In this document: positions 7,558-64,000 of the stretch, piece after piece
Layout: each line of letters opens with the position of its first letter
Numbering within the stretch: position 1 is the first letter of the stretch
Source: Phycisphaeraceae bacterium
GTDB lineage: Bacteria; Planctomycetota; Phycisphaerae; Phycisphaerales; Phycisphaeraceae
Reading direction: 5' to 3'
Length of the DNA: 64,000 nt
Assembly (NCBI GenBank): GCA_028284155.1
Contig: JANQSF010000079.1
Span: 55,684 to 119,683, forward strand
Translations under genes and position numbers: made by a program
Notes under the pieces: model-generated
Told to the model about the DNA's origin: nothing
Databases searched by the model: none
What the model saw: the letters and a program-made list of their open reading frames with translations, nothing else

Positions 7558-9261
7558 CTACAACAGTCCGATTACCGTCTGCATCATCTCGTCAACCACG
7601 CTGAGGAAACGTGCGCTGGCCTGAAACGTTCGCTGCAACTGCAGCACATTGATGGTTTCTTCATCCACATTCACGCCACTGACAGCCTGCCGCTGCGCCT
7701 CGAGGCTTTGCAGCACGGCCGTGTCGGCCTCAGCCTCCTGCCGACCCTGCGCGACACGCACCGCCAGGTCTTCCACGTGACGCCGCCACATCTCACCGAG
7801 GCTCACGCCCCCGGGCCCCGACGGCGGTGAGTCACGCAACGCCGCGATGGCCAACGCCGCGCGATTGTCGCCGTCGGCATGGCCGAACGCCGTCGCCACA
7901 CGGTCCGGATTCGCCAACACGTCGCCTTGAATGTCGGCGTCCAGCGCGTTCGTGCCGGTGAAGAACGTGTTAATGCCCAACGCCGCCAACACACCACTGG
8001 TGTCATCGCTGAAGCTCAGGCCAAAGTCCGCCGTGACCGCCTCGACCCGCAACCGACCCTCGGGCGTCACCGACGCATTGACGTTCTCGACCGCGTTCAA
8101 CTGCGCAGCCAGGTCGTTCAACGACGTGTCCGAACCCAGGCCGTCCAGGTCAACCGCGATCGAAGTTGTCTGCCGTTCCCCAGTCGCGCGCTGTGTGACG
8201 CTGAGCGCAAAACTGCCGTGCGACACATCAAACGCCAGACCGGCCGCCGCGTCGTTCAACACGGCTGAGGCGTCATCGACGCGGTAGTCGCTCGTGTACA
8301 CCCCAGCACGCAAAATGGGCTGCGCCTGACTGTGAATCCGGTTGACCTGGTAGATCAACTCGTTCGCAAAGCCGTCCAACGCCGCCAGCGCATCATCAAT
8401 CGTATTGCCGCGCGCGTTTAGTAACCCACCAAGTCGACCAGAACGCGGCTCGATCAAAGAGCCGTCCGCCGCGACGACCAGTTCCAGCGTCGCGTTGCCG
8501 TCCACATCTGTCGTCGAGCGCAGCTCGACTCCACGGCTCGCGCCGTTCAGCACGATCGGCGTCGAGCCCACGAAGACGTCCACCATGCGCGTGGGTTGCT
8601 CAACCGTGGAGATGTCCAATTCCTTGGCCAAGTCACCCAGCAGGGCGTCACGCTGGTCCCGCAGTGATGCGGCCTCGCCTCGGCCGTCTTCGCTCGCGGC
8701 GATCTGCTGATTCAAGCTTGCAATCCGGTCCAGCAGGTCGTTCACGTTCATGACCCCGCCGTCGATCTGCTCGTCGATCTGCTCACGAAAACCGGTCAGG
8801 TCATTGCGCAGGTTCTGCATGAACAGCGTCAGCGAGCGACCCTGCTGGATCGCCAACTCGCGGATCGAGTCTTCCCGAGGCCGCAGCGACAGGTCACTGA
8901 ACGCATTGAAGAACGCGTCCAACTGCGTGGTCAGGTCGTTGCCCGACAACTCGTTCTCAACCGCTTCGATCTGTTCCAGAATGGCCTGCTTGGCTTCCGA
9001 CGCCGCCGCGTCGGAGATGCCAGCCCGGACGCGGCCTTCCAATGCCTCGTCGATCACGCGCGTGATCGACTCGATCTCGACGCCGCGTCCGACGAACTGG
9101 CCGCCATCGATCGGCGTGTCACCAATCGGGGCGAGCGCGACCGTTCGGCGGTGATACGACGGCGTGGCCGCGTTGGCAAGGTTGTTGCCCGCGACTTCGA
9201 TCGCCGTCTGACTCGCCGTCAGGGCCGTGCGTCCGACTTGTAATGCGCCTGCCAGTGCCAT
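7558..9261 (-). CDS. flgK: Flagellar hook-associated protein 1
   Basis: N-terminus MALAGALQVGRTALTASQTAIEVAGNNLANAATPSYHRR carries the rod/hook N-terminal motif. C-terminus GVNVDEETINVLQLQRTFQASARFLSVVDEMMQTV. Confidence 0.9.
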   Translation of the reverse strand: MALAGALQVGRTALTASQTAIEVAGNNLANAATPSYHRRTVALAPIGDTPIDGGQFVGRGVEIESITRVIDEALEGRVRAGISDAAASEAKQAILEQIEAVENELSGNDLTTQLDAFFNAFSDLSLRPREDSIRELAIQQGRSLTLFMQNLRNDLTGFREQIDEQIDGGVMNVNDLLDRIASLNQQIAASEDGRGEAASLRDQRDALLGDLAKELDISTVEQPTRMVDVFVGSTPIVLNGASRGVELRSTTDVDGNATLELVVAADGSLIEPRSGRLGGLLNARGNTIDDALAALDGFANELIYQVNRIHSQAQPILRAGVYTSDYRVDDASAVLNDAAAGLAFDVSHGSFALSVTQRATGERQTTSIAVDLDGLGSDTSLNDLAAQLNAVENVNASVTPEGRLRVEAVTADFGLSFSDDTSGVLAALGINTFFTGTNALDADIQGDVLANPDRVATAFGHADGDNRAALAIAALRDSPPSGPGGVSLGEMWRRHVEDLAVRVAQGRQEAEADTAVLQSLEAQRQAVSGVNVDEETINVLQLQRTFQASARFLSVVDEMMQTVIGLL

Positions 9262-14737: not shown

Positions 14738-15520
14738 CTATGCGGAGACTCGGCCGAGCGTGTTGATCGCGCGGTCCATCGTCTGGTCGTGGTAACGGAT
14801 GAGGTTGGCGTTGCCGGTGACGGCCTTGGCCGCCTGAACGACTTTGAGCATGGCCTGGATGGCGTCGACCGCGCTGCCCTCGACGAACCCCGCGCGGATG
14901 CTCGTGTCGGCCGCGGCCGTGCGCGGGTCGCCCGGCTCCAGCGACTTGAACAGACCGCTGCCCTGCTTGATCAGTTGATCGCGATCATTGACCGACGTGA
15001 CCTGGATGCGACCGACCGATTCGCCGTTCTGCATGACGTGACCGTCAAGCTGAATCGACACGTCCGCGCCGCTGGCGATCACGATCGGCTGATCGCCCAC
15101 GCCCAGCACGGGGTGGCCGCCGGTGGTGGTTACCAGCGTGCCATCGGACGCCCGGCTGAAACGCCCGTCGCGCGTGAAGCGCAGTTCGTCGCCCGTCGCG
15201 CCTTCGACCCGCGTAACGAAGAACGTGTCGGGCGACTCGAGCATCGCGTGGAGTTGGTTGCCCGTGTTCTGGGCGGGGCCGATACGGAAATCGACGTGCT
15301 GCGGGCCGGCCAAGACGCCGCCGCCAAGTTTGTCGAGCAACGCGTGTCGCACGTCAATCCCGAATCCGCCTTCGACGGATTCGGGGTGTCGCTGGTGAAC
15401 GGCCGGCCGATCGGGCTTGAAGCCGATCGTGTTGACGTTCGCCAGATTGTTGGCAAAGACGTCCTGGCGGTACATATTCGTCAGGACGCCTGAGGCGGAA
15501 AGATACAGGCCGTAGTTCAT
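14738..15520 (-). CDS. flgF: Flagellar proximal rod protein FlgF (FlgF/FlgG family)
   Basis: MNYGLYLSASGVLTNMYRQDVFANNLANVNTIGFKPD and C-terminal VEGSAVDAIQAMLKVVQAAKAVTGNANLIRYHDQTMDRAIN. The ATG at 15520 is preceded by AAGGAGGTG. Confidence 0.88.
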   Translation of the reverse strand: MNYGLYLSASGVLTNMYRQDVFANNLANVNTIGFKPDRPAVHQRHPESVEGGFGIDVRHALLDKLGGGVLAGPQHVDFRIGPAQNTGNQLHAMLESPDTFFVTRVEGATGDELRFTRDGRFSRASDGTLVTTTGGHPVLGVGDQPIVIASGADVSIQLDGHVMQNGESVGRIQVTSVNDRDQLIKQGSGLFKSLEPGDPRTAAADTSIRAGFVEGSAVDAIQAMLKVVQAAKAVTGNANLIRYHDQTMDRAINTLGRVSA

Positions 15521-15843
15521 CGACGCACCTCCTTGTGAGTCGCCTCCGCAACGCCGCCGACCTCCGCGCATCCGTGCCCTTGAATGGCGTCAACCGTGAC
15601 GCCTGTGGGGGCGGTCGGGGCGTGTCGGGTGTCATCCGACTGGAGCGTTGGAACCACAGCCAACCGGTCGAGTCCTTCCAACCGGAACGGCACTTTCCGA
15701 GCAGAATGAGTATCGCAGCCCGCATCTAAACTGGCGGCCTCGCACATGTGGGCGGCGGCCGCCAATCGCGCCAAGCGGTTCAACGTTTGGCCGAGGTGCT
15801 CGTCGCCGGACTCGCGGAAGATGTCGAGGATGCGTTGAGCCAT
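15517..15843 (-). CDS. Possible small ORF (108 aa) whose TGA overlaps the flgF ATG (ATGA)
   Basis: MAQRILDIFRESGDEHLGQTLNRLARLAAAAHM... has a helical-looking N-terminus, but the C-terminal half has poor coding character. The only positive evidence is the ATGA overlap with flgF. Confidence 0.25.
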   Translation of the reverse strand: MAQRILDIFRESGDEHLGQTLNRLARLAAAAHMCEAASLDAGCDTHSARKVPFRLEGLDRLAVVPTLQSDDTRHAPTAPTGVTVDAIQGHGCAEVGGVAEATHKEVRR

Positions 15844-15958
15844 GGGGTGCTGCGTCTGGTCTGGGTCACTGATCCTGCAAGGCCGCCGGTCGCCCGGACC
15901 GACAGCCGCACCGCCCGTCCTGCGAGGATGGACGGCGACGATGGAACTAAGGCAACGG

Positions 15959-16047
15959 CGATGCCAACCTGAAATCGATGCCAATCCCGCCCGGAAATCT
16001 GAATGCAAATAGCTTGCATTTATAGTTTTATAAATATGTAGACAGGT
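15959..16047 (-). promoter_or_regulatory. Candidate promoter/operator region for the flgF operon
   Basis: Strongly AT-rich island (TTGCATTTATAGTTTTATAAATATGTAGAC) in a high-GC genome. 7-bp inverted repeat AATGCAA-N5-TTGCATT at 16002-16020. Direct repeat CGATGCCAA at 15959-15967 and 15976-15984. Confidence 0.3.
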
Positions 16048-16197
16048 CATGCCAACGCTATGCGCATCGTTAGAGCAAAAGATGCGCGGCGCAAGGATTG
16101 CCTCCCGTGCGCACCGTGTGCGCGACGTGGGCGGGACATGCGTTCTGACGGTGATCTGGACGTGCTGAACGGCGCAAGGTGGCCGGGTTACAACCTG

Positions 16198-17250
16198 CTA
16201 AGCCTTCTGGCCGAGCATCCGTTCCAGTGCGTCAGCCGTGTGATACACGATGGCTTCGTGCCAATGGGGAAATGGATTGAAGTATTCAAAGGTCAGGTAG
16301 CCACGGTACTCCACCTTGTCGAGCGCTTCGAGCACGGCCGGCCAATCGGTCGTGCCGTCGAGCAACAAGCGGAAAGCGTTCAGGTTGAACTCGTGCACCT
16401 TCTTTGAGTATTCCTTGAGGTGGATGTTCTGGGTGCGTTTGCCGAGGATCGGTATCCAGTGCTCGGGGAAGTGGTATTGCATGATGTTGCCGGTGTCGAA
16501 GTGGACCTTGACCCGGTCGGACTTGAATTGATCGACGAAGCCATTCATCTCCTGCGGGCTGTGGAGGAAGCCGTTGGCGAAGATGTTCTCCATGTTGAGA
16601 TAGACCTTGTGCTTGGTGGCCGCGGGGATGAGGCTGCGCACCGCGTCGGTCGCGCGTTGCAGCGCCACGTCGTGCGGCACGGGCGGCTCCTCTGGAATCC
16701 AAGGGGCATAGACCGACCCCGGCACGACCAGCAGGTTGTCCGTGTCCAGCAGGCGGGCGGCCTCGATCATCTTGCCGGCCAGTTCGACGCCGCGTTTGCG
16801 ACGTTCGGGATCGGCGTGCGTAAACGCGTATGGCCAGAACAGGAACGAGCACACACCGCTGATCTGCACGCCCACCTTGCGCGCCATGTCGCCGATCGCC
16901 TTGATGTCCGCCGCACTCGCGTCCGGCGACAGGTCGCCTTCCAGCGCGTAGTTCACCTCGACGCCATCAAAGCCCGCATCGGCGCATAATTCGAAGCAGT
17001 CCTTGAGTGACATCTTGTCCGGGTACGGCAGCGCCCACAGGTTGATCGACTTCTTCATGTCGTACCGCTTGCTGGGCTCGCGCCCGCCAGCGCGTTTCGC
17101 GGAGGTTGCGGGCTTGTCGTCGGCCGCGACGGCCAGACCTTGCGCCGCCATGAACGCGCTGCCGAACGCGGCTGAATAGGCCAGCAGCTCACGTCGGTTC
17201 AGGTCGTTACCGGGGGGCGTTGCGTGCGGGTCTTGCGGGCGCTGTGACAT
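16198..17250 (-). CDS. Sugar phosphate isomerase/epimerase (xylose isomerase-like TIM barrel) with Tat signal
   Basis: Twin-arginine signal NRRELLAYSAAFGSAFMAAQGLAVA. Body has FDGVEVNY, HFDTGN and LKEY... motifs of the AP-endonuclease-2/xylose-isomerase-like fold. Confidence 0.8.
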   Translation of the reverse strand: MSQRPQDPHATPPGNDLNRRELLAYSAAFGSAFMAAQGLAVAADDKPATSAKRAGGREPSKRYDMKKSINLWALPYPDKMSLKDCFELCADAGFDGVEVNYALEGDLSPDASAADIKAIGDMARKVGVQISGVCSFLFWPYAFTHADPERRKRGVELAGKMIEAARLLDTDNLLVVPGSVYAPWIPEEPPVPHDVALQRATDAVRSLIPAATKHKVYLNMENIFANGFLHSPQEMNGFVDQFKSDRVKVHFDTGNIMQYHFPEHWIPILGKRTQNIHLKEYSKKVHEFNLNAFRLLLDGTTDWPAVLEALDKVEYRGYLTFEYFNPFPHWHEAIVYHTADALERMLGQKA

Positions 17251-17312: not shown

Positions 17313-18560
17313 TCAGCCGGTGAGCCGCAACGGCATCGCTAGCAATGAGCGCGTGCCGATCCGCTTCGTCCAGATCAGCCCATCCCGGGGCACGGCCAGT
17401 GACAGGCCGGGGAACCGCGTCAGGACGTGCTCCAAGGCGACTGCCGCCTCCATCCGCGCCAGTTTCATACCGAGGCAGATGTGGATGCCCGAGCCAAAAC
17501 CGACGTGCCGGTTCGGCGAGCGCTTGATGTCAAACCGCTGCGGATCGTCGAAGACTTGTGGGTCGCTGTTCGCGCACGCGAGCATCGGCAGTACATACTG
17601 CCCACGCTTCAAGGATTGCCCGTGCAGTGTCATGTCTTCGGCGACGATGCGCGGCTTCGTGAACTGGATCGGCGTCGCGTAACGCAGCACCTCGTCCACT
17701 GTCGGCACGGCCAGGGACCAGTCACTTACCAGCAACGCGCGCTGATCGGGGTGGTCCAGCAGACACAGCAAAGCCATCGTGATCAGATGCGTCGTCGTCT
17801 CGTGACCAGCGAATAGCAGGAGAAAACCCATCGACACCAATTCGTCCTCGCTGAGCGAATCGCCATCGCGCTCGGCCTGAACGAGCAACGACAACAAACC
17901 GTCGCGCGGTGTCGTCCGGCACTGCCGGATCTGGTCGCGGAAGTAGCCGCTGATCTTAAACATGAACGGCAGCAACTTGAACAACCCGACGAGCGAACTG
18001 ACCGTCGCCAAGCCCGCCGCCCATCGTGTGAACTTGGCGCGGTCCTCGGCCGGCAGACCCAGCAACTCGCAGATCACGGCCAACGGGAACTGGCGCGCAA
18101 ACGCCGTGAAGTCGACGACTCCCGCATCACCAGGCCCCATCTGCGATTGTCCCGGCACCTCGATCGTCTGATCCATCACCGTCCGCGCCAAAGTCTCGAC
18201 ACGTTCGCGCATGTCTTCGACACTCCGCCGGCGAAAGGCGTCCTCCACCAGGTCGCGCAGACGGCGGTGGTCCGGCTCGTCCTTGGCCAACATATTCTGC
18301 GCCGGCCCACGAAACACCTTCGACACCCACCACTGCAGATCGACCCACTTGCTCTTGCCCGCGTTCCGAGCGTCGCGCACAAACCGCTCATGGTCGTGCA
18401 GCACGTCCGTCACCGCCTCGTGCGTCGTCGCCAGCCAGACATGACCGATAATCGGGATCTTCGACCACACCAACGACCCCGCCTCTCGCATCCGATCGAG
18501 TGTCGGAAACGGGTCGGCCTTGAAGGCCGGCGAGGTCATGTCGAAACGCTGTGGCTCCAT
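17313..18560 (-). CDS. Cytochrome P450
   Basis: Heme-binding loop FGSGIHICLG (FxxGxxxCxG), I-helix LLLFAGHETT, and the EVLRY (ExxR) motif. ATG at 18560; GTG at 18566 is also possible. Confidence 0.92.
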   Translation of the reverse strand: MEPQRFDMTSPAFKADPFPTLDRMREAGSLVWSKIPIIGHVWLATTHEAVTDVLHDHERFVRDARNAGKSKWVDLQWWVSKVFRGPAQNMLAKDEPDHRRLRDLVEDAFRRRSVEDMRERVETLARTVMDQTIEVPGQSQMGPGDAGVVDFTAFARQFPLAVICELLGLPAEDRAKFTRWAAGLATVSSLVGLFKLLPFMFKISGYFRDQIRQCRTTPRDGLLSLLVQAERDGDSLSEDELVSMGFLLLFAGHETTTHLITMALLCLLDHPDQRALLVSDWSLAVPTVDEVLRYATPIQFTKPRIVAEDMTLHGQSLKRGQYVLPMLACANSDPQVFDDPQRFDIKRSPNRHVGFGSGIHICLGMKLARMEAAVALEHVLTRFPGLSLAVPRDGLIWTKRIGTRSLLAMPLRLTG

Positions 18561-18602
18561 CGGCACACACCCCGTTGGTCACCGATGTGCGGGCGGACAT
18601 CA

Positions 18603-19862
18603 TCAGCGCGTTGGGTTCTCGTACCAAACAACACCCAGGTTGTCGCGCTCCTCACACGTGATCACGTCGAGATCGCCGTCGCCGTCGAGGTCGACCAGTT
18701 CAATCAGGTCGTACTTGACACCCTTCGATCCGGCGATGTCGGTGTAGGTCTCTTTGGGAAAGAGCGTACACAGGAACAGACCCGACTTTTCACCGCTCGC
18801 CCCCTCACAACTGATGACCAAATCGCGTCGGCCGTCGCCGTTCATGTCGGCCGCACGCACCGCCTTGGCCGTGCCGAAACGGTCAGCCGGGTAGTCGCCG
18901 CCGACCTGTTCCCAGTCGTCGCCCTTGCCGACGTACCACAGCGCGTCATTGCGTTTGATCGCCGCGTGAACAAACCAGTAGCCCTCGAAGCGGTCAACCG
19001 AAAGGAACATGACCTCGCGGTCGGTCGCCCCGATGGTGTGCTGCTTCCACGGTTGTCCAGCGACGACGCCCTTCGCACCGGGCGAGGCCAGCCAATAGAT
19101 ACCACGCTGCGCGCCCTTGCGGTCGGAGAAGATCAGGTCGTTGTCGCCGTCGCCATCCACGTCGTGCGCGATCATCGACATGATCCACCCCGCATCGCGC
19201 AGCTTGTGGTAACTCCACGCCGACAGGTCGCGCGGGTTGGCGGGCGCTTCGAGCCAACCGATCGCGCCGTCACCGCCCTTCGACCCGACAATCAAGTCGA
19301 CGCCGTGCCTGCCGTCGACCTGTTGCGGGACGCAGAACATCCACATCTGTTTGCCGGCCGTCGCTGGGATCGGCTCGGTTTTCCATGCAGTTTCGTCGAG
19401 GTACTTGGCCTTGTCCTTGGGCGCCCAGTGGACATACATCGTGCGCGTTCGGCCTTCGCAACTCGAGACGACATCGACCGCGCCGTCGTTGTCGAGGTCG
19501 ACGAACACAGCGTCCTCAGCCGACTTGACCCGGCCAACGGTCACGCTCGGCCACGCCTTCTTCACGTTCCGGGGGCCGGGGTTGAGGTAGACGCGGATGA
19601 TGCCGCCTTCTTCCCAACCGGTGGCGATGTCGAGGTGGCCGTCGCCGTTGACGTCGGCCAAGCGGACGCCGTCGGCGCCGCGCGAGGTGTTGTCGATGGT
19701 GTGTCGTTTCCAGGGGGCGGCGTGTGCGGTTGAAGTGACGAAGAAGACGACCAGCGCTAAGCCGCAAGCGGCTCGGAAATAGGGTGGGCACTGCCCACCA
19801 CGGTCGTTCAAGGACTTCCGGTTGGTGGGCAGTGCCCACCCTACGCGCTGCCTAATCATCAT
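18603..19862 (-). CDS. FG-GAP/VCBS repeat protein (secreted)
   Basis: Repeated Ca-binding-like loops DVNGDGHLDIATG, DLDNDGAVDVV, DVDGDGDNDLI, DMNGDGRRDLV and DLDGDGDLDVI. Signal-like LALVVFFVTSTAHA. The first ~35 codons are built from palindromic repeats, so the true start is uncertain. Confidence 0.8.
   Translation of the reverse strand: MMIRQRVGWALPTNRKSLNDRGGQCPPYFRAACGLALVVFFVTSTAHAAPWKRHTIDNTSRGADGVRLADVNGDGHLDIATGWEEGGIIRVYLNPGPRNVKKAWPSVTVGRVKSAEDAVFVDLDNDGAVDVVSSCEGRTRTMYVHWAPKDKAKYLDETAWKTEPIPATAGKQMWMFCVPQQVDGRHGVDLIVGSKGGDGAIGWLEAPANPRDLSAWSYHKLRDAGWIMSMIAHDVDGDGDNDLIFSDRKGAQRGIYWLASPGAKGVVAGQPWKQHTIGATDREVMFLSVDRFEGYWFVHAAIKRNDALWYVGKGDDWEQVGGDYPADRFGTAKAVRAADMNGDGRRDLVISCEGASGEKSGLFLCTLFPKETYTDIAGSKGVKYDLIELVDLDGDGDLDVITCEERDNLGVVWYENPTR
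19781..19842. repeat. REP-like pair: 20-nt perfect inverted repeat, each arm self-palindromic
   Basis: AGGGTGGGCACTGCCCACCA at 19781-19800 and its exact reverse complement at 19823-19842, with a 22-nt spacer. A nearby palindrome AGCCGCAAGCGGCT at 19760-19773 recurs at about 27367-27380. Confidence 0.85.
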
Positions 19863-52556: not shown

Positions 52557-55169
52557 ATGGACGCCCGGCCAAGCGATGTCCAACAAACCGAGCAGGACAA
52601 GCCGCGGCAACTGGGCCCCGTCGTCGCGGTGCTCATCGCGTGGATACTCGGCATCCTGCTGGGCAACGCGTTCGGCGGCGTCTCCTTCTGGCTGCTCGCA
52701 GGCGCGTCGAGCCTGGCACTCGGTTTGATGGTTTATTGGCGGCTTCGACATGTGCCGCACGTCGCGCGTTTCGCCATCCGTTTCTTCGCCATGATCGCCG
52801 CTGGATGTGCCGCAGCGGCGTGGCACAATGTGCGCGTCGAACGCATCGCCGACGACCACATCGCACATTACCTCGACGAGACGTCCCAACTGGCGCTCGT
52901 GACGGGCGTCGTCGATTCGCGTGTCAACCTGAACCCGCCGCAACGCGGCGCGTTTGCGTCGTTCACCTACCAATCGCCCGTCACCATGTTCGCGCTGCGG
53001 GTCGACTCGATCGTCGTCGACGGTCGCCCCGTATCGACGCGCGGGCGGCTGTTCGTCAAGGTCGAGCAGGCTGACCATCGGTTGCGCGAAGGCATGTACA
53101 TCGAGGCGGTGGGTTGGCTCGCGGCGATCGGCGGGCCGAACAACCCCGGCGAACTCGACTACCGGAGGATCATGGCCGACCGGGACATCGACGGCAGACT
53201 GACGCTACGCCGCCGCGGCAACTGGCGGGTGATCGAAGGCGAGCGGAGCCGATCCTTAACCTCCACGCTCGCGTCGTGGCGTCGCGCGTTACGCGACGAG
53301 GCGGCGGCGGCGCTCCACGCGGGCCTGCCGCCGGGTGAAGAACGCCGCGCGTTTCTCGACGCCCTGCTGATTGGCAGGCGCTCCGGCGACGCGGGCGAAT
53401 TGAGCGATGCTTTCCGCCGCGTCGGCTTGGCGCACCTGCTGTCGATCAGTGGCGCGCACCTGGCGATCCTGCTCGGCCTGACCTGGCTGGTCGTCAAGCT
53501 GTTCGTGCCGAACCCGCGCCGGTCGGCGGTCGTGGTCGGCGTTGTCCTGGTGTTCTACCTGTGCATCGTCCCGGTGCGTGTGCCGATCCTCCGCGCGGCG
53601 ATCATGGCCGGCCTGTTCTGCGCCGCTTACGGCTCAGGCCGACTGGTCAGCGGCACGAGGTTAATCGCGCTGGCGGCGTTGATCGTCTTGATCTGGCGGC
53701 CGGGCGACTTATTTACGGCCGGCTTTCAACTCAGCTTCGGCGTCGTCGCCGCCCTGCTCGCGTTCGCCGACCCGCTGAGCAAGCGGCTTTCGCCCGAGCC
53801 GGAGGTGCGCGTCCATGGCGACCGCACTGCCCACACGGTCGCGCGATTCATCGTCGGCTATTTCGCGGCCAACATCGTCGCGTTCCTGGTGGCCTGGCCG
53901 ATCGTCGCGTACCACTTTCAACTGATTAGCCCGTTGACCGTCGTGCTGTCGCTCATGGCGTTGCCGGTCGTCACCGTCGTGCTCGGGTTCGGCTACCTCA
54001 AGGTGATCGTCGGCATGGCCCTGCCGACGGTCGGCAAGCTGTTGGCCGGCCCTCTCAGTTGGTCAGCCGACGCCATGACGGGGCTGGTCGAACACGCCGC
54101 GACGTGGCCCGGCGCGGCCGTCGAACTCAACCGTACCCCTTCGTTGGTCTGGCTATTGGCCACGCTCGGCGTGACCCTTGCCTGGTTCACCGGCGCGCTG
54201 CGCGGACGTCGTGTCACGTTGATCTGCGCTCTGCTGGCTTGCGTGGCCTGGCTCTTCGTGTCCGACCGCGGGCTCTGGTTCCGCACATCGTCCAACGCCG
54301 CCAATCCGCCAGGCGATCGCGCCGCATTGCGTATCAACATGTTCGCCGTCGGTGACGGCTCCTGCTATCTCGTCCGCGTCGATGACGCTCAACGATCCGG
54401 GATCGGGACGGGCCAAGCCGCTCGCACACTGATGTTCGACTGCGGATCACAGGCGTTCTACGACGTCGGCCGACGCAGCGTCGCGCCCGCGTTGCGACAC
54501 ATGGGCGTGTCGCACCTCGACATACTGGTTCTGTCGCACGCCGATCTCGACCACTTCGGCGGTGTGCTCGACGTACTCGACGCCGTGTCCGTCGGCCAGG
54601 TGTACGCGCCACCGCAACTGATCGCAGAGGCGAACGACAGACCCGACGGGACCGCGGCATTTCTCGTTGACCGTTTGCGTGAGCGCCGCGTTGTCATCAA
54701 GCCCATGACGCGCGGCTGGCAAGCCGACTTGGGCTACGCCCAACTAAGCACGCTCTGGCCGCCGGCCGACCTCGAACCCAAGCGTGCGAACGACTCCTCA
54801 ATAGTCCTCTCCATCCGTACGTCGAACCGCCGGCTGTTACTGAATGGCGACATCCAGCAGGACGCGATCGAGTCACTGCTTGAACTCGAAGTCGACTTGA
54901 AGGCCGACGTAACCGACCTGCCGCACCACGGGAGTTTCGTCGATGCGTCACTCCAGTGGTTCAAGAGTGTCCAACCGCAGGTCGCATTGCAATCATCGGG
55001 ACCGACCCGGCTTTATAACGACCGTTGGCGCGACGCGTTTGAAGACGCTGACGCGACACGGCTCATCACTGCACGCCACGGCATGGTCGAGGTTCGGATC
55101 AGCCACGACGGCACCATATCCTGGTCGACATTTCGCCCTCGGCCAGGGACGATTCATGCCGATCCGTGA
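52557..55169 (+). CDS. comEC: DNA internalisation-related competence protein ComEC/Rec2 with metallo-beta-lactamase domain
   Basis: Multi-TM core (GLAHLLSISGAHLAIL). C-terminal LVLSHADLDHFGG and DLPHHGS beta-lactamase-fold motifs. 870 aa. Confidence 0.88.
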   Translation: MDARPSDVQQTEQDKPRQLGPVVAVLIAWILGILLGNAFGGVSFWLLAGASSLALGLMVYWRLRHVPHVARFAIRFFAMIAAGCAAAAWHNVRVERIADDHIAHYLDETSQLALVTGVVDSRVNLNPPQRGAFASFTYQSPVTMFALRVDSIVVDGRPVSTRGRLFVKVEQADHRLREGMYIEAVGWLAAIGGPNNPGELDYRRIMADRDIDGRLTLRRRGNWRVIEGERSRSLTSTLASWRRALRDEAAAALHAGLPPGEERRAFLDALLIGRRSGDAGELSDAFRRVGLAHLLSISGAHLAILLGLTWLVVKLFVPNPRRSAVVVGVVLVFYLCIVPVRVPILRAAIMAGLFCAAYGSGRLVSGTRLIALAALIVLIWRPGDLFTAGFQLSFGVVAALLAFADPLSKRLSPEPEVRVHGDRTAHTVARFIVGYFAANIVAFLVAWPIVAYHFQLISPLTVVLSLMALPVVTVVLGFGYLKVIVGMALPTVGKLLAGPLSWSADAMTGLVEHAATWPGAAVELNRTPSLVWLLATLGVTLAWFTGALRGRRVTLICALLACVAWLFVSDRGLWFRTSSNAANPPGDRAALRINMFAVGDGSCYLVRVDDAQRSGIGTGQAARTLMFDCGSQAFYDVGRRSVAPALRHMGVSHLDILVLSHADLDHFGGVLDVLDAVSVGQVYAPPQLIAEANDRPDGTAAFLVDRLRERRVVIKPMTRGWQADLGYAQLSTLWPPADLEPKRANDSSIVLSIRTSNRRLLLNGDIQQDAIESLLELEVDLKADVTDLPHHGSFVDASLQWFKSVQPQVALQSSGPTRLYNDRWRDAFEDADATRLITARHGMVEVRISHDGTISWSTFRPRPGTIHADP

Positions 55170-57041: not shown

Positions 57042-60000
57042 TCACCGGCGCAACTGATCGAGAATCACCGGGTCCTGGATGTCCTGATCGCGTGCCAGCA
57101 TCAGCACCTTCGAAATGACCTCGGCCGTCCGTGGGTCGTCGTCGGCAAATGGGAGGAACAGCCGACCCCGATGTTGGGCGTGGACGGGAACGACGCACAG
57201 CGCGCCGCCGGGCATCTTGTGGATCCCGGCACTGCCCAGGTGGACTGAATACTGCCCCAAATCGCCGTCGACCATCGCGTGCGGCTCTTTGAGTCGGACG
57301 TTGTCGATGCCGAGCAACTGGCAGGTCTCACGCAGCAAGGTCGCGCGCATCTCGACCGTCGATGCGCTGGCCTCGGGGTCGACCCCGCCGCGGTGCGCGA
57401 CGCTGACCACCAGGTCCATGTCGCGCATGATCTCGCTGAAGATGCGCGGCGGCACGTCGGCAAACTGCAAGGCGTGCCGTTCGTCGCGTTTGAAAAAGCG
57501 GACACACTCAATGGTCAGGCCTTCGACTTCCAGCGGCGTCGTCACGCCGTAATCGAACTCGACCGACGCGGTGACGCCCACGTCGTAGAACGTTTTCCAA
57601 ACCCCGTCCTGCGTGCCCCACCCGCGCTGCCCCCACAGCGCGTTGGCCTGCATCGGGTTGACCTGCTGGCCGGCGTAGCGGCGGGTCTTGTTGCCGTCCG
57701 ACCTCTCCTGCTTGGTCAACACGTAAAGCTCGCGGAATACCTGCTTGAACGGTTGCAGCCGCTCGGCGGCGAAGCACTCATGCTGCCACTTGTCCCATCG
57801 GCCCGTCTCGAACAGGTCGTACGCGTGCGCAATGCGCAGCGCCTCGTTCTTCTTGATCGGTTCGAGTTTGCCGGCGTGGTCGCGTAGCACCTTGCCGCCT
57901 TTGTCCGGGTAGCCCATGATGCCTTCGCCGATGAACACCAACCGACTGACCAGCGGCGCGAGCACGGCGTGCGCGCTGATATCAACCAACTCCGGTGCGG
58001 TGAACAAGTCGCCGCGGCACATCGCCGTTTCCAACGACTGCCGCATACGCGATGCCTGCCGCTTCAATTCCTTGACCCGGTCGGCCAACGCGGCGATCTT
58101 CTTGTCCTTCTTCTTGATCTTGGCGGGCAGCGTTTTCAACGTCTTTTCGCCGCGCGTCACGGTCAGGCTCGGCCGAGACGCCTCGTCGAGCGCGAGCGTC
58201 ACCGTGTAACCGTCTCGCTCGACGGCGACGGGCCCGTCGGCCAGGTCCTTGACCGCCTCGGCCTCCATCGCCCATTCCAGCCGCAGCGGGTCGGGGTAGC
58301 CGACCGTGCGCGCCAGGTTCTGCATACCGACCTCGGCAGAACGCACCGCGTCTTCCTTCGACATGGCGCTGAGCTTGTTCGCGTATCGCCGGTATTCGAG
58401 CAGCACCTTGTAACGCGTGGCGATGTCCGAGTCCCGCCGCGTCCCCTTGGCCAACGGCAGCAGGCCGAGCAGGCGGACGTACTCTTTCAGGTTGCGTTGC
58501 TTGATGCCGTCGATCAGGAACTTGCGGCTGACCCGGCCGAGCAACACGTCGGCGACCAGTTGAGCCCGCTTGGCCTGCGCGGCCGTGGCGGCGAAACGCG
58601 CAGCCGACGACATCGCTTCCCAGCGTTTCTTGGTGAGCCGTTTGTACACACGTTGGAACCAGTCGATGTCGACAGCGCCGCCGCGGCGGTCTTCATCGGT
58701 CAGTGGGGTGCGCTCCATGATGAGGCGGTCCCAGCCCGATCGTTGTTGTTGGGTGTCCTGTTCGTCACCGGCTGAGTCGTCGTCGCCGACACCCGCGCCG
58801 ATGGCGGCGCGTTCGCCGGCGTCGTAGATGTAGTTCATGTGCGCCAGCAACCAGTACACGCCCTCACAGAACCCGTCCCACTTGAAGTAGGCCTCAACAT
58901 GCCGCGACCATTGCGGGGCCAGAAAGGCCAACTCCAGGACGCGTTGTTCGTCGATATGCCCAGCCTTGACGGCCGCCCCCACGTCGTGGGCGAACGACTC
59001 GGGCGTGTCGTCTTGGCCGGCATAACTGACCTCGGCCAAGTGCGTCAGCGTCGCGACCCGGCCGTAGTGCGCGTCGCTATAGTAGCTGGCCGACGTCTTG
59101 TATCGCTCCTTACCGAGCGCAGTGAGGACGCGCAAGAGATTGTCCACACCGCGGACGGCCTGCAGGCTGTGTGCGGCCTGGGTTGCGGCGGTCGCTTCCT
59201 CACCGCGGGCCAACTCAACTTCCAGGACGCGGTCACGGCAGCGATTGACGACCTCGTGCAACTGCGGGCATTGTTCGAGATAGCCGCCGTATTCACGGGT
59301 CAGGTTCACCCGCGTCAGCATCCGCAGTTCGTCGAAACCGTCGTTGTAGCCCGCCAATCCGCGCGGGCCCAGGACATGGTCGTACACATCGGTCAGGTTC
59401 GCCCCATCGGCGGCATAGGCGTCTAACAAGACGTTAAGCCCGGGCCGATCTCGCTTCGCGCCGCGAATCGGTTCGTCAGCCCAGTGGCCCAGTTGCCAAC
59501 AACGCACTTGCTGCTCCGGCGTCATGCCACACTCGACGAGGCCGCTGATCATGAACAACTCACCAAACCACTCGCTAATGGGCCCGCCGTTTCGCCAGTC
59601 GTAGGGTTGATCGCCTTCGACCTCATTTTCATAGCGACCGGACGGCGCATCGGGCCGGGCCAGGTCCTCGACCGCGTTGGCGGGCAGGATCGCATAGGCC
59701 GTCTCGACGGCGTCCAATAGCCAATCCACCGCCGCGTTCGGCTGTTCCCAATAGACCAGCCATTCGACAATCTCTTTAACTTCACACTCGTATCGCAGGT
59801 CCGGCGGCTCGTGTCCGCCCGAGACAGCCCGCAGGTAGTCGGCGTAGCCCGGCCGCTTGGCCAAATCCTGCCACGTCCGCCACTCCCAGTTGCTGATGCG
59901 CGTCAAGATGTGAGCGCGGACGATTTCGAAGCCGTCACCGTCCTTGAGCTTACGCTTGCGTTTATCACGCCACTTCTCCCAGACCTGCTGTAGCGGACAC

Positions 60001-62117
60001 TCGCGGTCGCTCGCTGACGGAGCCTTGTGCCACTCGGGCGACGGGAAACTCCACCCAAGATTGCCCAGCAAGTGCCGCTCGTTGTTGCCCTCGTAGTTGA
60101 CGATGGTGACTACTTCCTCGCGGTGCTCGTGCACGAGGTCGTCCAACGACTTAAGACACGCAACGGCCGCGTCGGTGATGAACTTGACCTTCCGCTTCTT
60201 GGGCGGGACGACGGGCGTGCGATCCGCCAGATCGAAGAGGCCGAGGCCGTTTTCGAGTGTGAGCTTTTCCGCGCCGACGTTGTTGATCGCGTCGAGTTGT
60301 GTGGTTTCGTCGTTGGTCAGCTTCTTGCGCGAATCGGCATAGGCGGCGGCGCGCTGCCGGCATGCGTCGCGTGCGCGGTCGTCCTCAGCTAACTGACGCA
60401 GCATTTCCAAACCGGCCAGCCGTTGCGGCGCCTTGCCCGATTCGAGCAACCGGTCGGCGCTGGCCAACGCACCGTCGTCGTCCTGCACCAGCAGCAGGCC
60501 GATCACCCCGCGGCGCAGGTCGCTGGCCTTGCGTGTGAGCATGGCTTCCAACCGGGGCAAGTCTTCGTCGCGCAGGGGCTTCTTCGCCAGCGCGGTGATC
60601 GCCGCCTGACGCGCATCGGGCGACGTGTCGCCGGCAAGGGACACCAGCGCGTCGTGCGTGAGCTTGTCCCACTTCTTCTGCTCGGCCAACGCTTCGACAA
60701 TCTGTCGCCGCATCCACCCGTCGAACGCCTTGATGTATGGCAGGATGCGGGTGGCCGGCCGATCGCCGAGCATGTAATACATCTTCAACGCGACCTGCTT
60801 ACGGTCGATCGTCACGGTGACCCAGGGCCAGATCAGCGGCTTGGGCTTGTGCGCTTTGGCGGGCGTGCGCTCGTAGAGGCGTTCGAGTTTGTCGAACACG
60901 TCCTCGTCGGTAGCGCCCGGCCCCGGGTCGTGGACAGCCGGGAGGGCGCTGTACGCGACGCGCAGGTCTTCGTCGTCCAACGCCTTGGCGAAGTCCGGGC
61001 TGACAAACGGCGCTTGCATTTTCGCGAAGTGGTGCGCGGCTGCGAAACGGTGTTCCACACTCGGGTGATCAAGCAGTTCGAGCGCCGCCACAGCCGACTC
61101 GACCGCGTCGTCGAACGCCATCACCCACAACGCCATGAAGACCTGCTCCGCGTCGTCGCCCTTGAGCGCCGCATGGCAGGCGGCGGGGTCATCCAACATC
61201 TCCGCGGCCGACGCGATCGTGTCGTTGACGGTTTTGACCGTGGCAGAGTCCCACGCCAGGCCGAACCAGACGTCAACCGCGCGCGTCACGGCGCTGAACC
61301 GAGCCAGTTTGTGGTCGATGATGAGCCGGAGCATCCGGCGGAACGCCTGCGGGTGCGCTTCGTCGATCGTTTCGAGAACGGCTTGACGCAGACCCTCCTG
61401 ACGCTGCGCAGCCAAGAGTGTCTTTTCGATCAACTCCCAGCCCTCGGGGCGCGACGCCGAGAGCAGGCCGCGGATGACGTGCGCACCCATGCCGCCGATC
61501 TCGTGCTCGTTGCAGGCCGAAGCGGTCAGGATCTCAAACACCTCGTCAGCCACCGGCCCGCCCGCGTCTATCGCGCCGGCGAGCAGTCGGCCAATCGTGT
61601 CCTGCTCCCGACCGTAGTACTCGTCTAAGAACGGCGCCCAAGCGGCCAACCACGGGCAGGTGACGATGTCGGCTTGATATCGTGACGTCAATCCGAACAA
61701 CGACGAAGCCCAATCGCAACGCGCCTCCAACGGCGCGCCCGGGAAGGCCGGCGTGCGGAACGCCTTACGCACGTAGCCGCCGGAGTACGGGGCGCGCTTG
61801 AGCAGTTCCCACGCGGCGTCGACCTGTTCGGCGATGTTGGGGAACAACGCGCCGAACAGCTTCGCGCGCTGCCGAGCGCCCAGTTCGTCCACGCGCTCGC
61901 GTGCGGCGGCGGCCATGTTGTGCCGCTCCTCCCAGTCGTCGTGCTCGAACTCCGAGCCGTCCGCGTCTCGGCCGAACAGGGCGTACCCCGCGGCGCACGC
62001 CTGCTTGGGCAGCTTCTTCAGGATTGGCGAGTACCGAAACCATGCCGGGTCGTCCGTGTCGTCCTCCGATAAACGCCACGCCTTGAGCCGCTCCTTCGCC
62101 ACGTCCGGTTTAAGCAC
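57042..62117 (-). CDS. 1691-aa cytoplasmic helical-repeat protein with DUF4132-like C-terminal module (MolR/YehI-like); function unknown
   Basis: No signal peptide or TM segment, and no nucleotide-binding or catalytic motif that I could spot. HEAT-like repeats (SPDARQAAITALAKKP). C-terminal LKTLPAKIKKKDKKIAALADRVKELKRQ, LVSRLVFIG, QPFKQVFRELY and terminal LPFADDDPRTAEVISKVLMLARDQDIQDPVILDQL resemble DUF4132 proteins from memory. GTG start with a GGAGG SD. Confidence 0.8.
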   Translation of the reverse strand: MLKPDVAKERLKAWRLSEDDTDDPAWFRYSPILKKLPKQACAAGYALFGRDADGSEFEHDDWEERHNMAAAARERVDELGARQRAKLFGALFPNIAEQVDAAWELLKRAPYSGGYVRKAFRTPAFPGAPLEARCDWASSLFGLTSRYQADIVTCPWLAAWAPFLDEYYGREQDTIGRLLAGAIDAGGPVADEVFEILTASACNEHEIGGMGAHVIRGLLSASRPEGWELIEKTLLAAQRQEGLRQAVLETIDEAHPQAFRRMLRLIIDHKLARFSAVTRAVDVWFGLAWDSATVKTVNDTIASAAEMLDDPAACHAALKGDDAEQVFMALWVMAFDDAVESAVAALELLDHPSVEHRFAAAHHFAKMQAPFVSPDFAKALDDEDLRVAYSALPAVHDPGPGATDEDVFDKLERLYERTPAKAHKPKPLIWPWVTVTIDRKQVALKMYYMLGDRPATRILPYIKAFDGWMRRQIVEALAEQKKWDKLTHDALVSLAGDTSPDARQAAITALAKKPLRDEDLPRLEAMLTRKASDLRRGVIGLLLVQDDDGALASADRLLESGKAPQRLAGLEMLRQLAEDDRARDACRQRAAAYADSRKKLTNDETTQLDAINNVGAEKLTLENGLGLFDLADRTPVVPPKKRKVKFITDAAVACLKSLDDLVHEHREEVVTIVNYEGNNERHLLGNLGWSFPSPEWHKAPSASDRECPLQQVWEKWRDKRKRKLKDGDGFEIVRAHILTRISNWEWRTWQDLAKRPGYADYLRAVSGGHEPPDLRYECEVKEIVEWLVYWEQPNAAVDWLLDAVETAYAILPANAVEDLARPDAPSGRYENEVEGDQPYDWRNGGPISEWFGELFMISGLVECGMTPEQQVRCWQLGHWADEPIRGAKRDRPGLNVLLDAYAADGANLTDVYDHVLGPRGLAGYNDGFDELRMLTRVNLTREYGGYLEQCPQLHEVVNRCRDRVLEVELARGEEATAATQAAHSLQAVRGVDNLLRVLTALGKERYKTSASYYSDAHYGRVATLTHLAEVSYAGQDDTPESFAHDVGAAVKAGHIDEQRVLELAFLAPQWSRHVEAYFKWDGFCEGVYWLLAHMNYIYDAGERAAIGAGVGDDDSAGDEQDTQQQRSGWDRLIMERTPLTDEDRRGGAVDIDWFQRVYKRLTKKRWEAMSSAARFAATAAQAKRAQLVADVLLGRVSRKFLIDGIKQRNLKEYVRLLGLLPLAKGTRRDSDIATRYKVLLEYRRYANKLSAMSKEDAVRSAEVGMQNLARTVGYPDPLRLEWAMEAEAVKDLADGPVAVERDGYTVTLALDEASRPSLTVTRGEKTLKTLPAKIKKKDKKIAALADRVKELKRQASRMRQSLETAMCRGDLFTAPELVDISAHAVLAPLVSRLVFIGEGIMGYPDKGGKVLRDHAGKLEPIKKNEALRIAHAYDLFETGRWDKWQHECFAAERLQPFKQVFRELYVLTKQERSDGNKTRRYAGQQVNPMQANALWGQRGWGTQDGVWKTFYDVGVTASVEFDYGVTTPLEVEGLTIECVRFFKRDERHALQFADVPPRIFSEIMRDMDLVVSVAHRGGVDPEASASTVEMRATLLRETCQLLGIDNVRLKEPHAMVDGDLGQYSVHLGSAGIHKMPGGALCVVPVHAQHRGRLFLPFADDDPRTAEVISKVLMLARDQDIQDPVILDQLRR

Positions 62118-62119
62118 GG

Positions 62120-62548
62120 TCAGCCTCCCGCCAGAAGAGTGAGTCGGATGAATGTGATTCGGCTGTCGGGCTTGAGGAACAACTCGCGGTCGAGGTCGCG
62201 TTGGTCCTGCTCGTCGACGGCGACCAGGTAGATGCCGTCCTCGAACGCCTGTATCGCGGCCGCCACGGCCTCGTCAACGTCCTGCACGCCGACATCGCTG
62301 CCGCCGGACTCAATCTTGCCTTGGTCGGCAGCCTGCTCGATCTGCCGCGCGGTCAGGACGCGGAAGACCGTGCGGTCCTCCTGCCGCTTGACGAATGCCT
62401 CGACTTCGTGCCGAACGACGTGCTCGATGATCTGCCGCAGTGTCACGCCACCGCCTTCGTGCATCGAGGGCGGCGGCGGGATCGCGTGATCGGCAAACAA
62501 GGGACGCTTGCGCCCCAACGCCCGGCCGGTGATCGTGACGGTTGACAT
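62120..62548 (-). CDS. 142-aa hypothetical protein ending in Gly-Gly; possible beta-grasp (ThiS/MoaD/ubiquitin-like) C-terminal half
   Basis: ATG at 62548 preceded by GGGGA. C-terminus GIYLVAVDEQDQRDLDRELFLKPDSRITFIRLTLLAGG-stop. The stop lies 2 nt before the start of the 1691-aa gene. Confidence 0.6.
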   Translation of the reverse strand: MSTVTITGRALGRKRPLFADHAIPPPPSMHEGGGVTLRQIIEHVVRHEVEAFVKRQEDRTVFRVLTARQIEQAADQGKIESGGSDVGVQDVDEAVAAAIQAFEDGIYLVAVDEQDQRDLDRELFLKPDSRITFIRLTLLAGG

Positions 62549-62778
62549 GCGATTCCCCTGGAGCGGTGTCCGCTCAGTTTACCGTTTGCTCGTCGGGTCT
62601 CAAACGACTCGACACGGTCGGGCTCCAATCCTGCAACGACGTCGTGTCCACCGTACCGCGAGGGGAAATGCACCCGCCTATCCCCGTGCGTTGTTGAGCG
62701 ATCAGGGAGTGTATTTCGACTTCGCTCACGGCTGTGACGGCCCCGCGTCAGCCGATACAATGGAGTTGAGGAAACCAA

Positions 62779-64000
62779 ATGAACGCTCGGTTGGTTGCTT
62801 TTTTCGTGGTCTTGCTTGGCGCGCTGGCGATGGCCGGCGGCAATTGGGCGACTGCTGCGCCGCCGTCAAAGAGCGAGTTCATCAACTTGGTGGATCAGCA
62901 TTGCACGGGTTGCCACGACGCCGACTTGAAGAAGGGTAAACTCGATCTGGATTTGCTCCTCGATGCCCAGGTCGCGAAGCATGCTTCCGTTTGGGAGCGT
63001 GCGCTGCGCAAGATAGACGCGCGACACATGCCGCCGATCGGGAAGAAGCGACCGTCGGAAGCCGAGTACCGCCAACTAACTTCGTACCTCGTCGCGTCGC
63101 TTGACGCGGCCGCCGAAGCACACCCAAATGCCGGACGCACGGACACGTTCCGTCGCCTGAACCGGACCGAGTACCAGAACGCCATCCGCGACCTGCTCGC
63201 GCTGGAGATCGATGCGGCGTCGCTGCTGCCGCCTGACGAGTCGAGCCACGGCTTTGACCACATCACGGTCGGCGACCTGTCCCCGGCGCTGCTGACGCGT
63301 TACGTCAGCGCGGCGCAGAAGATTAGCCGACTGGCCATCGGTGCGCCGCGCAGCGAACCGGACGGCGTGACCTACCGCATCCCTCCTGACGTGACGCAGG
63401 AGAGCCACGTTCCCGGGCTGCCGTTGGGGACGCGCGGCGGCGGGCTTTGGCGGCACCACTTCCCACGCGACGGCGAGTACGAGATACAGATTCGGCTGAC
63501 GCGCGACCGTAACGATGAAGTCGAAGGACTCAACGGCTCGCACCAACTCGAGGTGTTGGTCGATCGGGCGCGGGTCGCACAATTCACCGTCGCCCGTCCC
63601 AAGAAACGCGCTGCGAATCACTTTGACGACACGAAGTTGAAAGCGCGATTCAAGGCCAAGGCCGGCCCGCGCGACCTGGGCGTGACCTTTGTCCGCAACG
63701 GGCGATCGCTTGAAGAGACCAAGCGTCAGCCGTTGAACGTGCACTTCAATCTTCATCGCCACCCGCGACTTGGGCCGGCGATCTATCAGGTGTCGATCAT
63801 CGGGCCGTTTCACGACAAGGCCGACGACAACCCGTCCTTTACGCAGACGCCCAGTCGCAAGCGTGTCTTCATCGCCGATGCGAAGGACGATGAACAGGCC
63901 GCCGCACGCACAATCATTCAAACTTTGGCACGACGAGCCTACCGACGACCTGTCACCGAACAGGACATGAAGCGCCCGATGGTCTTCTTTGCCGAGGCGC
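62779..64000 (+). CDS. DUF1587/DUF1592-type planctomycete cytochrome-c-motif protein (3' end outside the window; not in the ORF track)
   Basis: My translation from the ATG at 62779 gives MNARLVAFFVVLLGALAMAGG... It contains CTGCH, FRRLNRTEYQNAIRDLLALEID...GFDHI (DUF1587-like) and TLARRAYRRPVTEQDM (DUF1592-like). The frame is open to position 64000. Confidence 0.85.
   Translation, partial: MNARLVAFFVVLLGALAMAGGNWATAAPPSKSEFINLVDQHCTGCHDADLKKGKLDLDLLLDAQVAKHASVWERALRKIDARHMPPIGKKRPSEAEYRQLTSYLVASLDAAAEAHPNAGRTDTFRRLNRTEYQNAIRDLLALEIDAASLLPPDESSHGFDHITVGDLSPALLTRYVSAAQKISRLAIGAPRSEPDGVTYRIPPDVTQESHVPGLPLGTRGGGLWRHHFPRDGEYEIQIRLTRDRNDEVEGLNGSHQLEVLVDRARVAQFTVARPKKRAANHFDDTKLKARFKAKAGPRDLGVTFVRNGRSLEETKRQPLNVHFNLHRHPRLGPAIYQVSIIGPFHDKADDNPSFTQTPSRKRVFIADAKDDEQAAARTIIQTLARRAYRRPVTEQDMKRPMVFFAEA

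Follow-up and report, generated by a model that had tools for sequence, protein, structure and literature searches.

A Gly-Gly-ended small protein gene coupled to a giant DUF4132 gene: a widespread pair with links to damage responses

Why does a gene for a 142-amino-acid protein ending in Gly-Gly stand immediately in front of a gene for a protein of 1691 amino acids? We addressed this question for a 64,000-nucleotide stretch of DNA from Phycisphaeraceae bacterium (assembly GCA_028284155.1, contig JANQSF010000079.1, positions 55,684 to 119,683 of the forward strand), the whole of which is referred to as the window. An initial annotation, prepared without database searches, had described the two genes as a self-contained, translationally coupled module and had proposed either a sensor/effector or a carrier/ligase system. 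Our analysis gives about an even chance to a damage-induced two-subunit complex, in which the tail of the small protein would dock into the giant protein. The elements at the center of the question are as follows.

62120–62548, minus strand: small gene, 142 amino acids, from the open reading frame (ORF) and its translation (ATG at 62548, TGA at 62122–62120)
57042–62117, minus strand: large gene, 1691 amino acids, from the ORF call (GTG start at 62117)
62123–62128, minus strand: codons GGA GGC of the terminal Gly141-Gly142, from the sequence, doubling as the Shine-Dalgarno sequence of the large gene

Two coupled genes and their pairing across phyla

The stop codon of the small gene and the GTG start of the large gene are separated by 2 nucleotides (62119–62118), and the small protein terminates with ...FIRLTLLAGG directly before the TGA. 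A GGAGG motif (62128–62124) lies inside the Gly-Gly codons, six bases 5' of the GTG, and these codons therefore also constitute the ribosome-binding site of the large gene. The N-termini of orthologues agree with both starts (MSTLTISGK... for the small protein and MLKPEQAK... for the large one). The two-ORF geometry described in the initial annotation, including strand, gap and both lengths, was borne out by the ORFs and their translations.

A first search returned 665 homologues of the small protein at 141–144 amino acids, and an exhaustive search returned 1703 cluster representatives at E ≤ 1e-3. Among the 150 matches listed, those of typical size (approximately 135–150 amino acids) align to within 1–2 residues of the last residue. 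Because relatives of conserved length are this numerous, the small ORF is a real and strongly constrained gene.

The pairing was examined in both directions. A forward scan, covering one genome per species with an alignment of the small protein, detected relatives in 195 stretches, from which 80 loci were kept and combined with two earlier ones. In 80 of these 82 small-gene loci, the next gene downstream, in the same orientation, is that of the giant; the other two lie at contig ends. In the reverse direction, metagenomes were scanned with the giant C-terminus as the query. This provided 49 loci that contained the giant N-terminus and room upstream, and the small gene directly precedes the giant gene in 48 of them. 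These counts answer in the affirmative the question, raised in the initial annotation, of whether the small gene regularly precedes a DUF4132 gene. In the 121 pairs for which spacing was determined, 8 overlap and 62 are 0–10 nucleotides apart (70/121 tight). The pair occurs in Planctomycetota (Pirellulales, Gemmatales, Planctomycetales, Isosphaeraceae, and Phycisphaerae), as well as in Verrucomicrobiota, Armatimonadota, Deinococcota (four Deinococcus species), and Bacteroidota (Bacteroides finegoldii, Chondrinema, and Fulvitalea). The near-absolute two-way synteny, together with translational coupling in several phyla, argues for a joint function.

Clustering of all flanking ORFs gave no third conserved gene, which supports the earlier description of a self-contained, coupled two-gene module. 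A neighbor check suggested along with that description detected no E1/E2/JAB, MoxR/VWA, or SWIM gene co-occurring near the pair.

Several loci depart from the simple arrangement (loci are designated by L numbers, with positions within the locus). One genome bin, SJ383, holds two copies of the pair (L032 and L034), whose giants are 65% identical and whose small proteins both end in GA. Giants decayed by deletion, truncation, or splitting were observed in L005 (10437–11383), L165 (9394–11116), L086 (10440–11225), and L117 (6713–11287), and most of this set still adjoin a small gene. In Rhodopirellula baltica, a 1096-amino-acid paralogue with DUF5724 only, and neither DUF4132 nor DUF7737 (L042, 6630–9920), stands directly upstream of the small gene, resulting in a three-gene arrangement.

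A self-contained pair in ever-changing genomic contexts also fits a mobile anti-phage or conflict module, in which a giant sensor/effector and a ubiquitin-fold partner would act like the bacterial ubiquitin-like defense operons. The double copy in one bin, the decayed or deleted copies (L005, L165, and L117), and a pair located beside a type I restriction gene (L113) are consistent with this idea. However, neither PADLOC nor PHROG gave a match, phage copies and a GC anomaly were not found, no E1, E2, or deubiquitinase accompanies the pair, and regulation occurs through DdrO or LexA-type sites, as described below. Furthermore, the sequence changes very slowly, unlike fast-evolving defense genes: the C-terminal region of the giant keeps 54–58% identity in proteins labeled by their source as cyanobacterial, Cytophagales, Anaerolineales, and Gemmatimonadaceae. 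A defense role thus appears very improbable.

Regulation and genomic links to damage responses

Chromosome II of Deinococcus radiodurans carries an orthologous pair, drA0165–drA0166. Its small protein has 134 amino acids and ends in RLTALAGG, the spacer between the genes is 2 nucleotides, and the giant (1626 amino acids) contains DUF5724, DUF4132, and DUF7737. This small protein is 37% identical to that of the window, and the C-terminal region of the giant is 51% identical to its window counterpart. The two genes were reported as a putative operon and a DdrO target with an operator at −83, supported by chromatin immunoprecipitation sequencing and RNA sequencing, and the DRA0166 protein increased after mitomycin C only when IrrE was present (PMC8533742). 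In our analysis, the operator TTATGCTATTTACATAA occupies this position in D. radiodurans, D. psychrotolerans, and Deinococcus sp. D7000, and a symmetric variant, TTCTGCTATTTACAGAA, is present in D. ficus. The D. radiodurans elements are as follows.

L171, 3241–3260: DdrO operator
L171, 3324–3728: small gene

This operator, the radiation/desiccation response motif, was absent upstream of the window gene and in all 135 non-Deinococcus upstream regions tested, as would be expected because DdrO/IrrE is a Deinococcus system. Additionally, four loci of a clade with 47–49% GC have a palindrome of the form AG[AT]AC-N4-GT[AT]CT located 123–248 nucleotides upstream of the small gene. These palindromes, AGAACATTTGTTCT and AGTACAATTGTTCT, lie at 5737 in L113, 4204 and 4323 in L119, 5050 in L127, and 610 in L130, and they account for 5 of only 7 matches in the 2.37 Mb of DNA scanned. 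We take their form to be that of the Gram-positive/cyanobacterial type of LexA box.

The D. radiodurans small protein has also been studied under the name SEP068184, defined as the C-terminal 83 residues and stated to be confined to Deinococcus and to have no DdrO operator (PMC9650054). It increased after gamma rays and H2O2, its knockout showed raised H2O2 survival with higher catalase and antioxidant capacity, it pulled down thioredoxin Trx1 in vitro, and co-immunoprecipitation gave 157 proteins (PMC9650054). The wide family and the operator described above contradict both the "Deinococcus-only" and the "no DdrO operator" statements, and the 83 residues omit the first strands and the helix of the 134-residue fold.

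The phenotypes of the knockout, the Trx1 pull-down, and the position of trxC directly upstream of drA0165 could be explained if the small protein were an independent redox regulator, for instance a Trx1 inhibitor as proposed for SEP068184, with the giant merely co-transcribed. In contrast, the two-way synteny and the coupling across phyla favor a joint function, and the thioredoxin neighbor is not conserved. The published peptide lacks part of the fold, the study that supports the regulator made the two statements contradicted here, and a list of 157 co-immunoprecipitated proteins suggests low specificity. We therefore regard an independent redox role as quite unlikely.

These two reports bear on another point of the initial annotation, according to which a dedicated small partner of such a giant protein was not known to be described. 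For Deinococcus this does not hold, given that the genes were published as a putative operon (PMC8533742) and the small protein as SEP068184 (PMC9650054). For the wider family, our literature search found no account of the general pairing, of a ubiquitin-fold assignment beyond Deinococcus, of the variant tails, of the links to WGR domains and DNA ligases, or of the LexA-type sites.

The WGR and DNA-ligase links come from the domains and neighbors of the giant. At least six giants (L043, L046, L070, L080, L089, and L090) have a WGR domain added at the C-terminus, beyond DUF7737, and in L087 (9503–9733) the WGR piece forms a separate ORF after a frameshifted giant. In three planctomycete loci, an ATP-dependent DNA ligase consisting of a core, an OB fold, and one or two WGR domains is encoded immediately downstream of the giant gene, at the following positions.

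L007, 15216–16928: WGR DNA ligase gene
L050, 15972–17702: WGR DNA ligase gene
L031, 15676–17004: WGR DNA ligase gene

Since WGR fusions and adjacent WGR DNA ligases recur with the pair, damaged nucleic acid is a plausible candidate for what the giant senses or acts on. Between the two functions proposed at the outset, a sensor/effector system fits better than a carrier/ligase system, given the DNA-damage regulon and the WGR and DNA-ligase links.

A few nucleic-acid repair genes also stand near the pair and point in this direction, though possibly by chance. An Endo_dU gene directly follows DRA0166 (L171, 8674–9258), an intein-containing RtcB gene lies in L083 (1074–2921), and L085 contains two RlaP genes and an RtcR gene (184–1128, 15506–16276, and 18073–19674).

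Predicted fold of the small protein

Models of Pfam, NCBIfam, PADLOC, and PHROG gave no match to the small protein, and the same applied to 37 diverse members at E values up to 10. No chain in the Protein Data Bank (PDB) matched the small protein by sequence, and an hhalign comparison of the family with E. coli MoaD was not significant.

The AlphaFold model of the small protein has a predicted local distance difference test (pLDDT) score of 74, with low values at residues 61–85. The modeled order of elements is strands 4–10 and 21–23, a long helix from residue 37, a helix at 91–103, strands 107–111, 114–116, and 130–135, and then the tail. In a Foldseek search against PDB, the best match was Urm1 with an E value of 0.05, none of the matches being significant, and template modeling (TM) scores ranged between 0.39 and 0.63. 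Approximately three quarters of the top 50 matches have a ubiquitin fold (Urm1, MoaD/MOCS2A, SAMP1, ThiS, ubiquitin, SUMO, and ISG15). A published structure prediction for DR_A0165 likewise noted similarity to MOCS2A (5MPO) and SAMP1 (3PO0) (PMC9650054). Judging from these models, the small protein probably adopts a MoaD/Urm1-type ubiquitin fold (beta-grasp) with an insert of approximately 40 residues, and this insert carries an invariant G-K-x-x-x-G motif.

A MoaD-like predicted fold raises the question of whether the pair serves the molybdenum cofactor or is otherwise connected with molybdate. The DUF4132 gene of E. coli formerly went by the name molR (cited in PMC8533742), and modA lies approximately 2 kb from the D. 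radiodurans pair. However, at none of the loci is the pair linked to MoaE, MoeB, or another cofactor gene, molybdate genes are not co-regulated with it in D. radiodurans (PMC8533742), and the small protein has no sequence match to the ThiS/MoaD family. We consider a molybdenum-related role to be the most improbable of the explanations discussed here.

Domains and conservation of the large protein

The large protein contains the following regions.

58266–61913, minus strand: DUF5724 region, residues 69–1284 (Pfam, E = 4e-192), with an invariant patch at W227–W284
60504–60737, minus strand: HEAT_2 repeats, residues 461–538 (Pfam)
57618–58145, minus strand: DUF4132 domain, residues 1325–1500 (Pfam, E = 6e-41)
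57051–57356, minus strand: DUF7737 domain, residues 1588–1689 (Pfam, E = 3e-36)

The Pfam bit scores of DUF5724 (PF18991), DUF4132, and DUF7737 are 642, 141, and 124, compared with gathering cut-offs of 25, 27, and 27, respectively. DUF4132 and DUF5724, both suggested in the initial annotation, were thus right. DUF4132 proteins are widespread, and the literature search found no function assigned to them and no mention of DUF5724 or DUF7737. HEAT-like sequence extends over the N-terminal third (approximately positions 296–550 of the orthologue-alignment profile). A profile of 30 orthologues matched solely designed alphaRep/HEAT proteins among the PDB sequences, with E values down to 3e-19; likewise, the large protein itself matched no PDB chain by sequence beyond designed HEAT repeats in this third. 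The Pfam scan detected no signal-peptide or transmembrane, nucleotide-binding, or nuclease domain, no dedicated signal-peptide or transmembrane tool having been run, and no ThiF or other adenylating domain or MoaE domain.

The orthologues of the giant encoded directly downstream of the small gene in 80 of 82 loci are 1620–1860 amino acids long. Conservation was calculated over 58 and then 110 orthologues. Positions that are at least 97% invariant number 102–111; they are concentrated at residues 1430–1691 and are rich in His, Asp, Glu, Arg, and Lys. In DUF4132, the invariant set comprises H1431, D1434, W1441, Q1445, QPFKQxFRELY (1455–1465), and R1480; across the two samples, H1431 never varies, and D1434, K1458, R1462, and E1463 vary little or not at all. 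Conservation is highest in DUF7737 and the segment preceding it (0.7–0.83 per 50-residue window). E1562 and R1565 are among the conserved residues there, as are D1566, D1568, H1575, E1582, R1591, R1650, D1659, D1661, and K1670, which are invariant or almost invariant. For the last 407 residues, an AlphaFold model (pLDDT 85, predicted TM score 0.71) gave no match to PDB or to the viral BFVD in a Foldseek-type structure search (TM scores ≤ 0.17). From its conservation pattern, the C-terminal module looks like an active or ligand-binding site, and it matches no known one.

Two candidates were rejected during this analysis. C1448, considered as a universal catalytic cysteine, is invariant in 58 sequences but is Leu in 5 of 110, and the partners of these five still end in GG. 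"Short" DUF4132–DUF7737 proteins on long contigs turned out to be frameshift pieces of giants wherever the locus was inspected.

The C-terminal tail and the question of covalent chemistry

The small-protein tails in the 121 pairs end in GG (94), GA (13), SYW or SFW (11), and GG-YF (1); approximately one fifth of the pairs have another residue in place of the terminal Gly or additional residues after it. An end of the form G-x-hydrophobic-aromatic is found in 12 of the 121. The constant tail can be written as F-x-R-L-x-x-L-(A/S/V/T)-G, followed by one very small terminal residue or, in one clade, by x-hydrophobic-Trp. Tails of the form G-S-Y-W, G-S-I-W, and G-R-L-W were seen in a Bacteroidota-type clade (L154–L164, L169, L175 at 7929–8348, and L176 at 7980–8405); the tails of cultured Bacteroidota are LAGSIW and LSGRLW, with no Gly-Gly. 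The small protein of L152 ends in GG-Y-F.

We considered whether the Gly-Gly codons are kept for the ribosome or for the protein. Codons GGAGGN occur in 42 of 60 tightly spaced pairs. In pairs with a spacer longer than 30 nucleotides, 17 of 25 use GGCGGN and Gly-Gly is still retained, which indicates that Gly-Gly is selected at the protein level.

The GA tails arose more than once; for example, the GA-ended L055 is sister to the GG-ended L076, with giants 69% identical. A search for giant residues covarying with the GA tail yielded no specific signal, every candidate position being shared by GG-tailed sisters. The giants of the G-x-hydrophobic-W clade differ at the otherwise invariant P256 and R357 and have a deletion at approximately 726–734. 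This covariation was rejected as proof of a tail contact, since the clade may be a single lineage.

These data bear on the possibility that the tail is used covalently, the small protein being a sulfur carrier or modifier like MoaD, ThiS, Urm1, SAMP, or TtuB and the giant its user. The enzyme adenylating the C-terminal carboxylate would be an unlinked one of the MoeB/ThiF type, or the giant itself through an unrecognized activity, and thiocarboxylation or ligation to a target would follow. The exactly terminal GG in most pairs, with no fusions or long extensions seen, its retention in pairs that do not require it for ribosome binding, the sulfur-carrier clade as the best structural neighbors, and the enzyme-like invariant charged residues in the C-terminal module of the giant are all consistent with such chemistry. 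The E. coli genes for MoaD and MoeB are unlinked, and the lack of a neighboring E1 hence does not exclude it.

Conversely, no gene for E1, E2, JAB, rhodanese, or a MoaE-like protein is conserved in more than 130 neighborhoods of the pair, the search having covered these locus neighborhoods only. The giant has no adenylating domain in Pfam, C1448 is replaced by Leu in a clade with GG-ended small proteins, the change from terminal Gly to Ala has several origins, the Bacteroidota-type tails have no Gly-Gly, and in D. radiodurans moeB is not induced along with the pair (PMC8533742). At the level of sequence, the missing linked enzymes, the loss of C1448, and the tail variants lower the likelihood of a ubiquitin-type ligase. 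The carrier/ligase idea of the initial annotation was accordingly not supported as stated, for want of an activating enzyme at the loci, a universal cysteine in the giant, and an invariable terminal Gly. Overall, covalent use of the tail seems rather unlikely.

A further version would dispense with E1 and E2 altogether. In such a self-sufficient ubiquitin-like system, the DUF4132–DUF7737 module would activate or use the carboxylate of its partner at sites of damaged nucleic acid, which the HEAT or WGR parts would sense. We judge this version unlikely. If the tail were chemically used, the pair would represent a ubiquitin-like pathway without the usual enzymes; if the system were self-sufficient, it would represent an overlooked bacterial pathway of damage signaling or repair, shared by lineages from Deinococcus to Planctomycetes.

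A two-subunit complex as the favored model

The model to which we assign an even chance, a damage-induced complex of the two proteins, would work as follows. The two genes would encode an obligate two-subunit complex acting within the response to DNA or oxidative damage. Through translational coupling, one ubiquitin-fold subunit would be produced for each giant. The extended tail, L-x-G plus a very small residue, here Gly-Gly, would dock into the giant. The likeliest docking site would be the near-invariant, charge-rich DUF4132–DUF7737 module, which may be the catalytic or ligand-binding core, and the DUF5724/HEAT part, sometimes equipped with WGR, would serve as a scaffold or sensor arm.

Several observations weigh against this model. 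A low-GC giant of 1645 amino acids (L151, 2894–7831) has no adjacent small gene and is the sole clear exception to the pairing; a gene judged from its sequence to be MiaA-like occupies the small-gene position. A second giant, in L117, is also without a small gene and is N-terminally truncated. No operator shared by the planctomycete copies was found upstream of them, and neither a DdrO-type nor a LexA-type palindrome was found in the upstream region of the window copy or of other planctomycete copies. The knockout of SEP068184 altered H2O2 survival more than gamma or ultraviolet survival (PMC9650054). DR_A0166 is absent among the co-immunoprecipitated proteins listed in the accessible part of that report, although this listing carries no weight either way. 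The fold-search E values for the small protein are weak, even for the best match. Finally, the changes in the giants of the G-x-hydrophobic-W clade fall in the N-terminal and middle regions, outside the C-terminal module, and the docking site is uncertain for this reason.

One large branch of the DUF4132 family carries a dedicated partner with a predicted ubiquitin fold, in a pairing that is ancient and spans several phyla. DNA-damage regulons, WGR domains, and DNA ligases are all connected with the pair. The analysis places two separate Deinococcus studies within a far wider family, with correction of two published statements, and it makes a previously anonymous giant gene a definite target for experiments on radiation and oxidative-stress resistance.

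Comparison with known systems

The drA0165–drA0166 pair has in common with the window pair its orthologous architecture, domain order, 2-nucleotide spacer, and GG end. It differs in that the window copy has no recognizable DdrO-type operator, and the published work on drA0165 and drA0166 did not functionally link the two proteins.

MoaD–MoaE, ThiS–ThiG, and Urm1-type pairs resemble the window pair in consisting of a small protein of ubiquitin fold (a predicted fold in the window pair) with a flexible C-terminal Gly-Gly tail and an adjacent larger partner. In MoaD–MoaE-type pairs the tail inserts into the larger partner, whereas for the window pair insertion is what the model would predict. Unlike MoaD, ThiS, and Urm1, the window protein has no sequence membership in these families, contains the approximately 40-residue insert, has a 1691-amino-acid partner and no linked activating enzyme, and belongs to a family in which the tail varies (GA or G-x-hydrophobic-W) in some clades.

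YehI/MolR (YehH) of E. coli shares DUF4132 with the window giant, and a connection with WGR recurs in both groups. However, YehI has neither DUF5724 nor DUF7737, and the yeh cluster contains MoxR, VWA, and SWIM genes that are absent from the window locus, where WGR is lacking as well. YehK was considered as a counterpart of the small protein and rejected, being unrelated and having no Gly-Gly end.

Bil-type and other operons with E1, E2, JAB, and a ubiquitin-like protein are similar in that a Gly-Gly protein of ubiquitin fold (a predicted fold in the window pair) is encoded in a compact operon. In contrast to these conjugation operons, the window pair lacks E1, E2, and JAB as well as a conserved catalytic cysteine, and PADLOC gave no match to it. 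For a docked, non-covalent partner, the nearest precedent is presumably the TmoB-type subunit, which we take to be a small ubiquitin-fold protein held non-covalently in a larger complex; TmoB is, as far as we are aware, unrelated in sequence to the window small protein and has no conserved terminal tail.

Flanks of the window locus

The upstream side of the pair contains one further element.

62549–62778, no strand: divergent intergenic region, with a sigma-70-like site at 62603–62576 on the minus strand (promoter scan)

No Rfam match was found in this intergenic region. Beyond it, a planctomycete cytochrome-c/PSD gene starts divergently at 62779, and at the other flank a convergent ThuA-domain gene ends at 57009. 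The convergent and divergent borders given in the initial annotation were thereby confirmed. The GC content at the locus equals that of its surroundings. Just upstream of the ThuA-domain gene lies a ComEC-type competence gene (window positions 52557–55169), which combines Competence, DUF4131, and metallo-beta-lactamase domains.

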